Below are positions 21,049-27,216 of a stretch of 64,000 nt of DNA, in pieces. Source of the stretch: Capsulimonadales bacterium (GTDB lineage: Bacteria > Armatimonadota > Armatimonadia > Armatimonadales > Armatimonadaceae). Both the position numbers and the translations under genes were made by a program. The first letter of the stretch is position 1. Every line of letters starts with the position of its first letter. The stretch lies in contig JANRLW010000090.1 in the NCBI GenBank assembly GCA_033762295.1, positions 35,813 to 99,812 of the forward strand, in the 5' to 3' direction. The notes below the pieces were generated by a model. That model searched no databases and had not been told where the DNA came from. It saw only the letters and a program-made list of their open reading frames with translations.

Positions 21049-21519
21049 TCAGGCGTCGCCGTTTTCGGCGACCGGCGGTTCGGCTTCGACGGGCGTTTCC
21101 GGCGTCCCGACGTGGCGAAACACCAGTTCTCCGTTCTCCTCCACGTTCAGGGCGATCGCGCCTTTCAGGACGCCGTTCAGCAGGGAAAGATTCATTTCGT
21201 AGCGAGCGATTCGATCGGACGAAATCTCGGCGCGCTGTCGTCGGGAGGTCTCACTGCGTCCGGAATGAATGGCCGTGCCCTCCTCGCGAACGGAACGCGC
21301 CCAGGAGACGACGCTGTGCAGGACATCCGGCGTTGCCCCTTTGGTACCACGCCCCCGTAATACCACATCAATCAGGACGGCGGTTTCATTGATCGGTTCG
21401 GTTATTTTTGTGCGGCGACCCCGTCGCCTTACACCGTTTTCGGCGGGCGTATCGGCAACCGTCGCGGGTGTTGCTTCGGCATTTTCCGGCTTTACTTGTG
21501 CTCTTCTGCCTCTGGGCAT
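21049..21519 (-). CDS. Hypothetical protein with an Arg-rich disordered N-terminus
   Basis: MPRGRR...RRRGRRTK followed by a helical domain. Confidence 0.7.
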   Translation of the reverse strand: MPRGRRAQVKPENAEATPATVADTPAENGVRRRGRRTKITEPINETAVLIDVVLRGRGTKGATPDVLHSVVSWARSVREEGTAIHSGRSETSRRQRAEISSDRIARYEMNLSLLNGVLKGAIALNVEENGELVFRHVGTPETPVEAEPPVAENGDA

Positions 21520-21759: not shown

Positions 21760-21807
21760 AAAGAAAAGGTCTGTCCGGTCGGCGACCGGACAGACCTTTT
21801 CTTTTTT
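21760..21807. terminator. Strong bidirectional intrinsic terminator downstream of dnaN
   Basis: 21-bp perfect inverted repeat AAAGAAAAGGTCTGTCCGGTC-ggc-GACCGGACAGACCTTTTCTTT. Confidence 0.85.
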
Positions 21808-21836: not shown

Positions 21837-22967
21837 TCAGATGACCTGCATCGGCATGAGAACGCAAAGATAGTCCGCGTCATTTTCACCGATCGGACGG
21901 AGAAGACCGGGACGGAGCGGTTCGGTCAATTCGAGGACGACGCCATCCGTCTCGACGACATTGAGAACGTCCTGAAGATACTTGGCGTTGAACGCGATCT
22001 GAATATCGTCGCCCTCGCGGGCCACCTCGATCTCTTCTCGAACGGAGCCGACCGTTCCGGATTCGGCGGAGAGGATTAACTGCGCGCCTTCGGTTTCCAG
22101 TTTTACGCGGTTCGCGTTGTCGCGGGCGACGATCGCGGCGCGTTTGACCGCACGGGCAAATTCATCGCGTTCCAGGGTCAATTTTCGATCATGACCTTGC
22201 GGAATGACCCGTTCGTAGTTCGGAAACTGGCCTTCCAGTAACCGCGTGACCATCGTCGTTTTGCCGACTTCGATCCGGCACTGACCGGCCGCCAGGGAGA
22301 TGGTGATCGTATCCTCGTCTCCGGCCAGACGAAGCAGTTCGTTCATGGCGCGCGCCGGAACGATGGCCGTGGCGTTGCCGTCCCCTCCCGGTATTTTCGC
22401 GGTCCGAACGGCCAGTCGATGGGTGTCGGTCGCCACCATCTTCAGGATGTCGCCGTTGTAGGACAGAAGGACGCCGGTCAGGATCGGACGGGTTTCGTCG
22501 GTGGAAACGGCAAAAAGAACGTGGCGGATCATGTCGCGCAACAGTTCGCCCGACAGGGTGAAACTGGCCGTGGTCGTCACCTCCGGAGGGGCAGGAAACT
22601 CCTCGGCGGGAAGTCCGAGGATGTTATACTCGGAGCGTCGGCACTGTACCTGGATCTTGTTGCCGCCGTCGGGGCGATCGAGTCGGACGTCGTCATCGGG
22701 AAGGGCGGCCAGCATTTCGGTGAAGACACGCGCCGGAACGGTGAAGCCAAGCGTCTCCTCACCGCCGTCGAGCGTTCCTTGAAGACGGGCGGGAAGATTG
22801 CATTCCATCCACATCTCGAGGTCGGTGGCGGTCAGTCGAAGCGATCCGTCGCCTTGCGGCCGGGCGAGGATATGGGAGAGTATGGGCAGGGTCGATCGAC
22901 CGGAGACGGCGCGACCGACGGTCTGAACGGCTTCATACAGGTCTTTTCGCGGACAAACAGCTTGCAT
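21837..22967 (-). CDS. dnaN: DNA polymerase III beta sliding clamp
   Basis: ATDLE, AVSTDETRPILTGV, VATDTHRLA, GQFPNYERVIP, AFNAKYL, VLMPM. Confidence 0.97.
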   Translation of the reverse strand: MQAVCPRKDLYEAVQTVGRAVSGRSTLPILSHILARPQGDGSLRLTATDLEMWMECNLPARLQGTLDGGEETLGFTVPARVFTEMLAALPDDDVRLDRPDGGNKIQVQCRRSEYNILGLPAEEFPAPPEVTTTASFTLSGELLRDMIRHVLFAVSTDETRPILTGVLLSYNGDILKMVATDTHRLAVRTAKIPGGDGNATAIVPARAMNELLRLAGDEDTITISLAAGQCRIEVGKTTMVTRLLEGQFPNYERVIPQGHDRKLTLERDEFARAVKRAAIVARDNANRVKLETEGAQLILSAESGTVGSVREEIEVAREGDDIQIAFNAKYLQDVLNVVETDGVVLELTEPLRPGLLRPIGENDADYLCVLMPMQVI

Positions 22968-23011
22968 GGGTTATCTCTTTCATCGGACGGCGGTCCGGAA
23001 GTACGTTGGGA

Positions 23012-23302
23012 TCAGAACCCGATCGGCAACTGGTAGGGTTGCGACGCATTTTCGGGTTCGGCCGTATTGAGGTGCGGGTTGTCCGCACGGAGCCGGGTGA
23101 GCAGGCGAGAGCGAAGGGCGTCCGAAGCCATCTCCTCGCCGATGCCGGCGCGGAGCCGATCGCGCGTGATACGAAGGGTTTCGGCCTCGAACGCACAGTG
23201 CGGACAGGTCAGAAGGTGTCGTTCCGTCCGCTGTCGGGTCTCCTCGGGAAGGTCGTCGTCCACGTAGGGACCGATCCGGTCGGCGTTTTCGCTACAGGTC
23301 AT
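23012..23302 (-). CDS. Soluble zinc-binding anti-sigma factor (zf-HC2/ZAS)
   Basis: C3 ... HLLTCPHC (HxxxCxxC); no TM; overlaps the sigma stop; C-terminal QLPIGF. Confidence 0.85.
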   Translation of the reverse strand: MTCSENADRIGPYVDDDLPEETRQRTERHLLTCPHCAFEAETLRITRDRLRAGIGEEMASDALRSRLLTRLRADNPHLNTAEPENASQPYQLPIGF

Positions 23303-23891
23303 GGGCCTCCTCGTAATACGCCCGGAGGCGGTCGCGCAGGGCGCGCCGGGCGCGGTATAAAAGCGATTTGGTGGCGGCGACGGACTTTCCGAGCGCCGCC
23401 GCCGCTTCGGCGTGGGTTACCTCCTCCAGATCGCAGAGGGTCAGAACGACCTTCCACTCCTCGGGGAGCGTATCCAGAGCGTTCAGCAGGGCGGAGCGTT
23501 CGGCATGGCGTTGCCATTCCTCTTCCGCGCTGCGGTCGGCCGGGGCGGACGATAGCTCCAGGGACGAGAGCGAGAGTGTCGGCAGGCGCAACTGGCGGCG
23601 TTTGTCGGCGGCCAGGTTGCGAACGATAGCGAAGAGCCACGGGCCGAACGTCGGCGCGTCGCCCCGGAACTGTCGCGCCTGTCGAAAGACGCGCAGGAAT
23701 GCCTCCTGCGTCACTTCCTCCGCATCCTCCCGCGTTTCCGTCAGGCGAACCGCCAGCCCCAACGCACGATCGACATATCGGTCGAACAGCGTTTCCAGCG
23801 CCCGAGCGTCTCCCTGGCGGAAGCGAGCGACCAATCGGGCTTCGTAGGCGTCGGTGGTAGGTTTCATCGTCTTACGGAACGGCGTCGTCAA
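23292..23891 (-). CDS. ECF RNA polymerase sigma factor
   Basis: Region 2 DAEEVTQEAFLRVF and FGPWLFAIVRN; region 4 KSLLYRARRALR. Confidence 0.92.
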   Translation of the reverse strand: MTTPFRKTMKPTTDAYEARLVARFRQGDARALETLFDRYVDRALGLAVRLTETREDAEEVTQEAFLRVFRQARQFRGDAPTFGPWLFAIVRNLAADKRRQLRLPTLSLSSLELSSAPADRSAEEEWQRHAERSALLNALDTLPEEWKVVLTLCDLEEVTHAEAAAALGKSVAATKSLLYRARRALRDRLRAYYEEAHDL

Positions 23892-23975
23892 AGGGAAGAC
23901 GTGATCGACCGGGGAAAAGCGTCGCGACGATGCGAAAAAATCCGCGGGGTCATCGGAAAAGGCGAAGACCCGCTT

Positions 23976-25241
23976 TCAGAAGGTGACGCGGGTCTGCAGA
24001 GTCAGGCGACGTTTGATGATCTGATCTTTTTCCCCGCTGGAAGGGACATCCCGTTCGTACTCGAACAGGGTTCGGATGGTGAAGCCGGGGAAAACGTCGA
24101 AGTTTGCGCCGATCCCCATGGTCCCCGCATGTTCGGGCCGGTTCGGGAAGTTCCAGCGTTTTCCGTAGGCGACCAGGGTGATCTGCCGCCTGACCTGCAC
24201 ATTCCCTTCGACGAAGTAACCCCACACGGGGTCCTGATCATCCGCCCCGAAAACGATTTCGCCACGACCGAGAAACGGGCCGTAACGGTAGATGCCGTCG
24301 CCTGCGAAACGGGTTTTTCGAATCACGCGACTCCGGTCCCGGGCGCCGGAAAAGCCGGAGGGGGAAAGGATCGTATCGAAATTGGTGATGGGGCCGTTCC
24401 CGGTCAGCAGGGAACCGCCGATCTGGAACTGGCCCAGACGGGTGGGGAAGGTGCGATCGAGTCGGAACGTCAGGACCGAATTGGTATCCGTGTCGCGCCG
24501 GTTCGGACCCGCGCCGGTCGTGATCGACCCGGCGTAATGATAGTACTTACCGTACTCTCCCTCGATCATGATGCCGGTATCGACCCGTAAGCCCAGCGAG
24601 AGTTCGTACAGGGGCTGGATCGGTTGGAGCGGCGTGTCGTAGGTGGCCAGAATCCCGAAGGGGAGAACGAACTGCCCGACCCGAACATTCGCCGAGACGC
24701 CGGGGAAAAGGAAGCGGTAGAACGCGTAGACCTCGGAGGCACGAAGTCGGTTCAACGACGTTCCCTGCTGATCGTCCTCCAGCACGAGCTGAAAACGGGC
24801 GCCGCCGCGTTCGTCGCCGGTGACCGGGTTGGCCCGTATGTAGTCCAGAGTGAACCGCGTGGCGGCGACGTAACCGCCGATGGTTTCCGAGGTGCCGCTG
24901 GTCGTTCGGTTCCGGTATCGAAGGTCGGCGGCGGCATTGAAGAAAAGATTGTTGCGTCGGCGGTAGAAGGGGAGCGGGGCGAAAAGGTCCGGCCGACGGG
25001 AAGCGGTGGAGGGAGGCATGGTCGGCTTGACGCCCGGGGTCGGTTGGGGAACGCCGTCGGCGTTGAATTGGACGTCCGGAACCGGGGGGGCGGTTTGGGC
25101 ATGGGCGGAACCGGCCAGGGACAACAAAACTAGCGTGACGGCGAGGCCGACACACCGGCTCTTTTTGAAATCGTCCGCTCCGCTGCCGACGCGGGCGACC
25201 GTCCGGAGCAGGAATCGTAGGCAGAAAAAACAGGTGGACAC
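23976..25241 (-). CDS. Putative outer-membrane beta-barrel protein
   Basis: Signal peptide ending AHA-Q; alternating strands; VGQFVLPFG; C-terminal Phe; start uncertain. Confidence 0.65.
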   Translation of the reverse strand: MSTCFFCLRFLLRTVARVGSGADDFKKSRCVGLAVTLVLLSLAGSAHAQTAPPVPDVQFNADGVPQPTPGVKPTMPPSTASRRPDLFAPLPFYRRRNNLFFNAAADLRYRNRTTSGTSETIGGYVAATRFTLDYIRANPVTGDERGGARFQLVLEDDQQGTSLNRLRASEVYAFYRFLFPGVSANVRVGQFVLPFGILATYDTPLQPIQPLYELSLGLRVDTGIMIEGEYGKYYHYAGSITTGAGPNRRDTDTNSVLTFRLDRTFPTRLGQFQIGGSLLTGNGPITNFDTILSPSGFSGARDRSRVIRKTRFAGDGIYRYGPFLGRGEIVFGADDQDPVWGYFVEGNVQVRRQITLVAYGKRWNFPNRPEHAGTMGIGANFDVFPGFTIRTLFEYERDVPSSGEKDQIIKRRLTLQTRVTF

Positions 25242-25452
25242 GCCAGTATTCTCGGACTTTCCGATCCATTCAGAGAGTGGGAAGGGCGGCAGGGTTTCGC
25301 GTTTTCCGTTCGCCGTTGACTGTGATTTATGGCATCGGTATAATAGGAGGTCGGGTCCGACCTGTCCGGCCGAAAGGCCAGGGTGTCGGCCCGCCGCTCC
25401 GAAGAAGATTTTGAGGTCGTTCGGAGCGTTTAAGAAAGGATTGCTTACCGCG

Positions 25453-27216
25453 ATGCCCACGGATGGCGAAAGCATGGATACGCTCCGGGATCGCTTGCTG
25501 CGTGTCGAGGCGGAACTGGAGAAGCGCAACGACCGAGTCAAGCGACTGGAAAAAGAAATCGAGCGACTGCAGCAGCAGATTCAGGAGGCCCAGGGCCAGC
25601 CGGCGGTGGATTTCTCCGAGATGGAGGAGGCCCTGAAACGGCTTCTGACGCGGGTCGTCATGATTCTGGCGGCGAGTAAGGCGTTGTTCATGGTCAGCGA
25701 TACGAAGACCGGTGAACTGTTCGCCGATACGCCGGCGATCGGTTTCGAGGACGCCGATGTCCGACGGCTGCGTATCAAGGATCACCTGGGCATCTCGGGT
25801 GAAGTGTTTCGGGAGAACCAGCCGGTCATTCTGTACGACGCCGAAGCCGATGATCGAGCGGCGGAAGAGCAGTGGTCGCGGCTCGGTATCCGGAACGGTC
25901 TGTGCGTTCCGCTCGTTATCGAGAAACGCGACGAGGAGACGAACGCGGTCATCGAGCGTCGAACGTTCGGGGTTCTCTGGGTCTTCAACAAAAAGTTCGG
26001 CAACGCCTTTATCGCCGAGGACGTTCAGTTGCTGACGAGGATGTCGCGGAACGCGGCCGCCATTATCAACGCGGCGGAAACGTTCAAAATCCTCGTGAAA
26101 GAGCGAGATGAAGCGCTGGAGACCATCGAAAGCCTCTCGATGGGACTGATCATGGTCAACACCAACCAGCGGATCACTCAGATGAACCACTCCGCGCTCC
26201 GGATCTTCGGTTTGACGAAGGAGGATCTGGCGGGTGGGCGTACCTATGACGCCGTCATCAAGGACGAGAAGGTGCGTGAACTCCTGCGCCGATCGCTGGA
26301 AGAGGATGCGGATGTGTCGGCGGAGGTGCCGCTGACCAATCCGGATAACCCCGACCACAGCCATACCTTTCAGGTTCAGTCGGCGACGGTGCGCAATGAA
26401 ATCGGCGAGGCGATCGGGTCCGCGACGATCTTCAACGATATCACCGAGATCAAAAATGTCGACAAGATGAAAACCGCGTTCGTTTCGACGGTGTCCCACG
26501 AACTTCGGACGCCGCTGACCGCAATCAAGGGATTCATCTCCACCCTGGTACAGGACACCGAAGGGTTTTTTGACAATAACACCCGGCATGAATTCTATAC
26601 CATCATCGATACGGAATGCGACCGCCTCCGTCGACTGATCGATGACCTGTTGAACGTTTCCCGTATCGAGGCGAATGCCGCTCTGGAAATGAACCTGACC
26701 AAGTTCAATCTGCGCGAGACGCTCGACAAGGTGATCGCCATCCAGAGCGGAAGCACGTATAAAAAGGAAAACCATTCGCTGTCCTGGGAGATGTCGCCGG
26801 ACGTCCCGACGGAGATTGAGGCCGACCAGGACAAGATCGAGCAGGTGTTCCATAACCTGATCGGAAACGCGCTCAAATATGCTCCGGGCGGCGGTCCGGT
26901 GCAAGTCACCGGAAAATTGTTGCCCGGCGGTGAAATGCTGGAGTTCGCTATTTCCGACAGAGGTATCGGTATGTCCGACGCGTTCCTGAAGAAAGTCGGC
27001 GAAAAGTTCGCACGCGCCGACAACCGGGATACCCGGACGATCGGCGGCACCGGTATCGGTCTGTTTCTGGTGAAAGCGTTCGTCGAAGGGCATGGCGGTC
27101 GTATGTGGCCTCATTCGGAAGGGGAAGGCAAAGGCTCGACCTTCTTTTTCACGTTGCCTCTGAACCCGAACGCCGACGGTCGGGACGGCAACCTGGGAAG
27201 CCGCGTCGCGGGCTAA
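25453..27216 (+). CDS. Cytoplasmic sensor histidine kinase (coiled coil-GAF-PAS-HisKA-HATPase)
   Basis: [30 protein letters not shown]. Confidence 0.92.

Follow-up and report, generated by a model that had tools for sequence, protein, structure and literature searches.

A probable dedicated ECF sigma factor for the sliding clamp gene dnaN in Armatimonadota, with an anti-sigma factor whose tail may read the clamp

In a window of 64,000 nucleotides from a Capsulimonadales bacterium of the family Armatimonadaceae (the whole stretch of DNA analysed here, from contig JANRLW010000090.1 of assembly GCA_033762295.1), a gene for a sigma factor of the extracytoplasmic function (ECF) type, a gene for a small anti-sigma factor and dnaN, the gene for the beta sliding clamp, stand in a row on the reverse strand. 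Sequence comparison across the phylum Armatimonadota, bacteria of soil and water, makes it very likely that dnaN is the conserved target of a lineage-wide ECF sigma factor that is dedicated to it. The anti-sigma factor ends in a conserved peptide similar to clamp-binding motifs, and docking of this tail on the clamp is the best available explanation, with odds that we consider about even. For the preferred reading as a whole, namely an operon with a dedicated sigma factor, an anti-sigma tail that docks in the clamp cleft and feedback from the clamp on dnaN, we estimate a probability of roughly 0.5. The parts are known (ECF sigma factor, class-I zinc-finger anti-sigma factor and DnaN), and the new points are the dedication of the sigma factor to dnaN and the clamp-like tail of the anti-sigma factor.

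The sigma factor gene is located at 23292..23891 (reverse strand, as for all features of the window below). Its open reading frame (ORF) has 199 aa from a TTG at 23891, and ATG 23867 (191 aa) is the likelier start because of the conserved promoter position and the N-termini of the orthologs. The ATG of the anti-sigma gene (23012..23302; 96 aa, soluble, class-I zf-HC2) overlaps the sigma stop by 11 nt, and dnaN (21837..22967; 376 aa, TIGR00663) starts 44 nt past the anti-sigma stop. The operon ends at an intrinsic terminator (21760..21796) that consists of a 14-bp G+C-rich hairpin and a U-run. The 82-nt stretch 21836-21755 has a folding energy of -43.4 kcal/mol (z = -9.1) and none of 200 shuffles was as stable, though the hairpin was not picked up by a simple terminator scanner. 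An earlier note on this DNA, made from the letters alone, had described the gene overlap, the 96-aa soluble zinc-binding anti-sigma (ZAS) protein, dnaN 44 nt further on and the strong terminator, and all of its coordinates hold.

The assignments of the three proteins are clear from family models. The sigma factor matches Pfam Sigma70_r2 (1.7e-14, 53.8 bits) and r4_2 (3.6e-13, 49.4 bits) and reaches 85.4 bits with TIGR02937 against a cut-off of 42.9; having only the sigma-2 and sigma-4 domains, above the family threshold, it fits the ECF group (group IV), and no equivalog model reached its cut-off in the NCBIfam scan. The anti-sigma factor matches zf-HC2 of Pfam with 36.6 bits (cut-off 22.2, E 4.6e-9), carries both the H-x3-C-x2-C motif and the upstream Cys (ligands C3, H29, C33 and C36) and shows no hydrophobic stretch over its 96 aa. 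DnaN scores 291 bits with TIGR00663 (cut-off 137.65) and contains the three Pfam clamp domains. It is encoded by a single-copy gene, with one match in a genome of 94.5% completeness, and dnaA is on a different contig.

Just upstream of the sigma gene we predict an ECF-type promoter at 23893..23926, with the -35 element GCGACGCTTTT at 23925-23915 and the -10 element CGTCT at 23901-23897. The arrangement GCGACGCTTTT-N12-CGTCT (34-nt architecture) recurs at fixed spacing in the Armatimonadaceae (hereafter f1), where 18 of the 22 distinct regions ahead of the sigma gene have it; 12 loci from a related-loci search of closer alignment supplied extra upstream regions. A position weight matrix (PWM) made from 12 orthologous sites, with the window's own site excluded, gave 35.3 bits for the window's site (23926-23893); the runner-up among 10.3 million genome positions had 19.3 bits and no ORF behind it. 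A regular expression for the core promoter matched the genome twice, against about 0.6 matches expected by chance. From this gap in PWM score and the two matches, the regulon of the sigma factor in the genome studied (G000) seems to be limited to this operon. The other core match, at G000:C7:4244 (-), precedes a 238-aa ORF by 68 nt and agrees with a chance occurrence. Neither the sigma gene nor dnaN of the window showed a sigma-70-like promoter upstream. The sigma promoter is predicted to be autoregulated, with the cognate anti-sigma gene co-transcribed. Related promoters stand at the same position in two further Armatimonadota families, f15 (9/9) and f7 (1/1). In another family, f11, neither the regular expression nor the PWM trained on f1 found the promoter, though the PWM sees a variant -35 element in place at L137 and L144. 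In addition, a conserved TA[C/T]AAT box stands some 20-30 nt ahead of the ECF -35 element at six f1 loci (L004, L006, L008, L009, L010 and L019), with GTGAAAAAA about 7 nt behind the box. This could be another promoter, of the housekeeping type, or some other signal, and no obvious copy of the box exists in the window at 23927-23990.

The linkage of the pair to dnaN extends far beyond this genome. A search of 60 relatives for the anti-sigma factor yielded 30 loci (L003-L032, the window's own included), 26 of which belong to f1. dnaN is downstream of the anti-sigma gene in 25 of these 26, and the exception, L011, ends 140 nt past the gene at a contig end. A sigma ortholog is upstream of the anti-sigma gene in 23 of the 26 loci; L012 and L022 are truncated by the contig start. 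In f1 the anti-sigma gene and dnaN are separated by as little as -1 nt (genus g6) and by up to about 900 nt, with an extra gene inserted in the long gaps. Some lineages have gaps of -1 and -4 nt, which suggests translational coupling. Two same-strand genes between the anti-sigma gene and dnaN, L034:3291-3788 (165 aa) and L038:1609-2445 (278 aa), occur at f1 loci that retain the tail motif. In the sister family f2, a sigma gene and a short anti-sigma-like gene are upstream of dnaN in 19 of 20 loci retrieved. Moreover, in a phylum sample of 151 genomes, the region upstream of dnaN was inspected in 96 genomes outside f1 and f2, and the pair was found there in 26 of the 96 loci, from six families: f11 (12/12), genus g34 of f15 (9/9), f7 (2/4), f27 (1/4), f13 (1/1) and f35 (1/1). 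The other genera of f15 lack it upstream of dnaN (0/4), and dnaA is upstream of dnaN instead in 21 of the first 70 loci. The sigma factors beside dnaN in the further families match a hidden Markov model (HMM) of the f1/f2 sigma factors with E = 1e-40 to 1e-56, and are therefore orthologs. Thus the synteny with dnaN, which the earlier note had proposed to look for in other genomes, is widespread.

The family f8 is informative for the target of the sigma factor, since dnaN is not linked to the pair there. The anti-sigma factor of f8 (a subgroup with RQWxLPF) was found in all nine sampled genomes (E = 1e-27 to 1e-38), with the orthologous sigma gene directly upstream in 9/9 (E = 1e-51 to 1e-61), and dnaN lies 94 kb (G081) or 620 kb (G188) away or on other contigs. 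A promoter of the form GCGACACTTTT-N12/13-CGTC precedes the sigma gene in six of nine f8 loci. The same promoter is located 100-185 nt before dnaN, on the dnaN strand, in five of six genomes, and the sixth has a close variant; only about 0.13 matches are expected in the 13,800 nt of these dnaN regions (the regular expression matches 95 times per 10.3 million genome positions). The link from sigma factor to dnaN therefore outlives the loss of synteny, as does the tail, which argues that dnaN is the conserved target. The earlier idea that the ECF regulon includes dnaN itself is consistent with both arrangements, the operon in most families and the ECF promoter before unlinked dnaN in f8. In three f8 loci (L165, L167 and L169), the gene right after the anti-sigma gene encodes a conserved protein of about 323 aa starting with M[TS][KQ]VRKAVITAAGRGTRMYPAT, which presumably resembles a sugar-nucleotidyltransferase.

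The second feature of the system is the tail of the anti-sigma factor. The protein ends with ...NTAEPENASQPYQLPIGF, in which a variable polar linker (residues 79-87, NTAEPENAS, 23042..23068) is followed by the clamp-binding-like tail QPYQLPIGF (23015..23041). The consensus in f1 is Q-[Y/F]-x-L-P-[I/L/M/F]-x-hydrophobic, and across families it is Q-[Y/F/W]-x-L-P-[I/L/M/F]. All but one of the 26 f1 loci have the core [Y/F/I]-x-L-P-[I/L/M/F], which is immediately preceded by Q in 22, and variants of it occur in other families, in agreement with the conservation anticipated in the earlier note. That note had read the protein as ending in QLPIGF after a polar linker, which was confirmed at 23032-23015. 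Its alignment of QLPIGF with known clamp motifs stands in part: the tail does hold a conserved motif, but the Q at -6 varies among orthologs (Q/R/T/A/S), and it is a Q at -8 that is conserved, so that the family consensus falls in the register of QLSLPL in E. coli Hda. In the protein of the window, P occupies -8, and Q stands at -9 and -6.

In f11 the tail is QY[QNR]LP[MLI]xG in 11 of 12 loci, the twelfth having QYRLF. Genus g34 of f15 carries [QE]P[LF]SLP[LF]L and then 2-15 mostly acidic residues (9/9), and f8 carries Q[W/Y/R]xLP[F/L/I] in 8/9, as read by eye. The motif does not reach the C-terminus in f15, f8 and genus g6, where a variable acidic extension of 2-15 residues stands behind it. 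The f7 tail is QLVLGI (2/2), and the clamp motif of E. coli Pol IV is QLVLGL. Both QLVLGI and the QYRLF of f11 fall within the hexa- and pentapeptide clamp consensus given in excerpts of three papers (PMC5397184, PMC9690074, PMC12867686). The Hda motif is described in part of the first of these as 6-QLSLPL-11, with L7, L9, P10 and L11 in the cleft (PMC5397184).

The conservation of the tail is at the level of the peptide. Among 24 distinct f1 proteins, column entropy is 2.1-3.1 bits over 15 linker positions and 0-1.2 at the fixed motif positions, and the invariant L is encoded by five codons and the invariant P by four; this codon usage together with the variable linker indicates selection on peptide and not on DNA. 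A role of the tail region as a DNA signal for dnaN translation was rejected for the same reason, and also because the motif is retained where dnaN is 500-900 nt away (L005, L007, L014 and L019) or unlinked (f8). When 1.84 billion representative proteins were searched with a profile, 1,089 matched at E <= 0.001. Among the best 150, which were inspected, 61 are short (60-125 aa), and 37 of these 61 have a clamp-like core in the last 20 residues; in a large subgroup with RQWxLPF and an acidic tail, 19 representatives of clusters at 50% identity all share Q, W, L and P. As background we used 19,786 six-frame ORFs of at least 80 aa in G000. The clamp-core regular expression matches 130 of their tails, and the ending LP[ILMF]x[FLIVM] is found in only 2, which makes the tail more than a chance likeness. 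Simple clamp-motif regular expressions gave no match in DnaE1, a second DnaE-like protein or an ImuB-like protein of the genome. As a separate observation, a 287-aa protein of metallo-beta-lactamase fold (G000:C75:39234-40097) ends with QLALF, a textbook C-terminal clamp pentapeptide and the sole ORF tail in the genome matching QL[SDEAG]LF.

An AlphaFold2 model of the anti-sigma factor (23 orthologs; mean predicted local distance difference test score, pLDDT, 78.5) has four helices up to about residue 74, and residues 79-96 are coil with pLDDT 54-62, so the motif is in a segment predicted to be flexible. The zinc site is kept less well than the tail. The H-x3-C-x2-C motif is missing from 9 of the 26 f1 rows, all of which keep the tail, which makes the tail the better-conserved feature, and it is present in just 2 of 23 f2 anti-sigma factors. 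Redox or zinc sensing was rejected as the conserved input, since the ligands are lost in whole genera that retain the tail, and the site is probably an accessory input at most.

For the docking itself, a DnaN dimer (19-ortholog alignment) was folded with residues 60-96 of the anti-sigma factor (23-ortholog alignment). The score was 0.53 (runs 0.59, 0.42 and 0.53), and the best of three controls had 0.02; two of the controls, with unrelated 37-residue natural proteins as partner, gave 0.00 and 0.02. Of 157 solved complexes, 116 attain the mark for a positive result, as do 2 of 215 mismatched pairs; just 18 of those 157 complexes and both mismatches do so at 0.60 or below. Agreement among the runs covers at least 53% of contacts, with a partner pLDDT of at least 63. 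For the proposal of the earlier note that the anti-sigma factor docks on the co-encoded clamp, the verdict is 'weak support', and the procedure returned no contacts.

We propose that sigma, anti-sigma and dnaN form one operon driven from one autoregulated ECF-type promoter. The four-helix domain of the anti-sigma factor would hold the sigma factor, as expected from its family membership, and the motif behind the flexible, variable linker would dock in the hydrophobic cleft between domains II and III of DnaN as QLSLPL of Hda does. Many polymerases and repair proteins compete for the clamp clefts, and the pool of free clamp could in this way feed back on dnaN transcription. When free clamp is plentiful, tail-bound clamp would stabilise or protect the anti-sigma factor and the sigma factor would be silenced; when polymerases fill the clefts or clamp runs short, the anti-sigma factor would be lost and the operon induced. 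Given binding, such negative feedback is the somewhat likelier sign on the basis of design logic.

Several observations weigh against this proposal or parts of it. In f2 the promoter expression matches 0 of 19 regions and the f1-trained PWM finds nothing either, and the strict motif core is present in 0 and a loose core in 1 of 23 f2 anti-sigma factors, though the operon is retained; the operon can therefore do without the tail. In L013, L029 and L031 the sequence before the anti-sigma gene, at least 1.4 kb, yielded no sigma ortholog. dnaN may also be driven by an internal promoter within the anti-sigma gene. With regard to the motif, P replaces the conserved Q of most orthologs in the tail of the window's protein, and this tail matches the clamp consensus only with a displaced Q (QPYQLPI) or as QLPIGF. 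Position 2 of the motif is aromatic where the canonical residue is L, and the clamp-binding consensus is itself loose, as an excerpt of PMC9690074 indicates. The tails of f13 (QLVLAS), f27 (QRVLPG) and f35 (QPILPM), one locus each, are only near-matches. Finally, the fold result for the tail on DnaN is weak, and many clamp-peptide complexes have been solved, so that a passing score may reflect likeness to them and not binding.

If the tail does bind the clamp, the sign of control could be the opposite: DNA-loaded clamps or free clefts would pull the anti-sigma factor off the sigma factor, and ongoing replication would switch dnaN on, in the manner of late transcription in the phages T4 and Mu. 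The motif, synteny and promoter evidence is identical for both signs, and precedents are found in MuC with its two clamp-binding motifs (excerpts of PMC12867686) and in T4 gp45 with gp33/gp55 (excerpts of PMC7892883). On the other hand, if the clamp activated its own gene in addition to the autoregulation of the sigma promoter, an essential housekeeping gene would be under positive feedback with no obvious brake, and the variable linker of 10-15 residues suggests that the tail and the sigma-binding domain act independently and not in competition. We consider the opposite sign unlikely.

Two other explanations do without the clamp as a ligand. The tail might mark the anti-sigma factor for regulated proteolysis, as a tag for degradation or for an adaptor, and dnaN would then simply be an output of the regulon. 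Regulated anti-sigma proteolysis is common (RseA, RsiW), the f1 motif is hydrophobic and at the extreme C-terminus, and the fold support for clamp docking is weak (0.53). However, a C-terminal tag is hard to reconcile with the internal motif of f15, f8 and genus g6; QLVLGI and QYRLF are inside the clamp consensus, and the unrelated partners in the fold controls stayed at 0.00 and 0.02. This explanation appears quite doubtful. It is still less probable that the tail makes an additional contact with the sigma factor or RNA polymerase within the inhibitory interface, with a coincidental likeness to clamp motifs. The orthologous sigma factor does accompany the tail in every family having it (sigma HMM 1e-40 to 1e-61), and f8 keeps the tail without dnaN linkage. 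But the linker is unconstrained in length and sequence, f2 has the pair without the tail, so that sigma binding does not need it, and the ECF promoter before dnaN in f8 shows that the clamp is still functionally linked there.

Compared with known systems, E. coli Hda, which takes part in RIDA (regulatory inactivation of DnaA), is likewise a regulatory protein with a clamp hexapeptide in a flexible segment and in a similar register (Q-hydrophobic-x-L-P-hydrophobic). The contact is known for Hda and predicted here. Moreover, Hda is an AAA+ protein acting on DnaA with the motif at its N-terminus, whereas here an anti-sigma factor carries the motif C-terminally and with an aromatic second position, and dnaN transcription is the presumed output. 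SigR-RsrA and other pairs of ECF and soluble ZAS proteins are alike in gene overlap, in the zf-HC2 pattern C...H-x3-C-x2-C and in an autoregulated ECF-type promoter. Nevertheless, our anti-sigma factor is outside the RsrA equivalog (TIGR03988, anti-sigma-R of the mycothiol system; 41.1 bits, below the cut-off of 62.5), and 9 of 26 rows in f1 and 21 of 23 proteins in f2 have lost the cysteines. Terminal clamp peptides on transcription factors, with the clamp as an input to RNA polymerase, are known from phage T4 gp45-gp33/gp55 and Mu MuC (excerpts of PMC12867686 and PMC7892883), though those are phage activators on DNA-loaded clamps, and here a cellular anti-sigma factor would act on the clamp gene, with no homology detected. 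Streptomyces ShbA is likewise an ECF sigma factor for an essential housekeeping gene and not for a stress regulon, but its target is hrdB, the principal sigma gene, and the excerpted text mentions no link to the clamp (PMC12019637). Caulobacter SocB is a non-replicative protein that enters the DnaN cleft via a clamp-binding motif, but it is a toxin blocking elongation and is presented, in the excerpted text, outside any sigma/anti-sigma context (PMC9690074).

Among the papers listed in literature searches, none by title or abstract describes an ECF sigma factor dedicated to dnaN or an anti-sigma factor with a clamp-binding-like tail, and a search combining ECF, Armatimonadetes and anti-sigma found nothing, so the statement of the earlier note that it knew of no such system can be maintained within these searches. 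A part of the ECF reclassification lists an Armatimonadetes subgroup, ECF14s10, with a ZAS protein in position +1 (PMC7826278). The main text of that paper does not mention dnaN, DNA polymerase, replication or the sliding clamp, and the portion of its supplement at hand mentions polymerase III for ECF30s1 alone. PMC3814617, a candidate prior description, is unrelated, since ECF there denotes a transporter.

Some neighbouring genes vary around this core. At L013 and L041 (genus g7) and at L029 and L031 (genus g13), an anti-sigma-like gene precedes dnaN with no sigma ortholog within at least 1.4 kb, and the sigma gene may have been relocated in these genomes. The ORFs flanking the operon in the window, 23976-25541 (521 aa) and 21049-21519 (156 aa), both on the reverse strand, matched no Pfam or NCBIfam family. 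The upstream neighbour differs in orthologs, being mostly a 74-110-aa protein ending ...RLNH[PH]..D, together with another gene that we take to be anhydromuramic-acid-kinase-like.

To our knowledge, control of the clamp level in bacteria is little understood beyond model species and their dnaA-dnaN operon. This lineage appears to have uncoupled dnaN from dnaA and put it under a private ECF sigma factor, an unusual arrangement since the normal role of ECF factors is in stress regulation. Across much of Armatimonadota the clamp may control its own gene, with an anti-sigma factor that reads cleft occupancy and a sigma factor that is the dedicated, probably essential, driver of dnaN; we put this forward tentatively, at slightly less than even odds. 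If true, the anti-sigma tail would be a direct sensor of free clamp that feeds back on clamp synthesis, and this would be the first cellular case of a replication clamp serving as a ligand in sigma signalling. It would also add a new class of input, beside proteolysis, redox, partner switching and phosphorylation, to the ECF factors, the most abundant family of alternative sigma factors.

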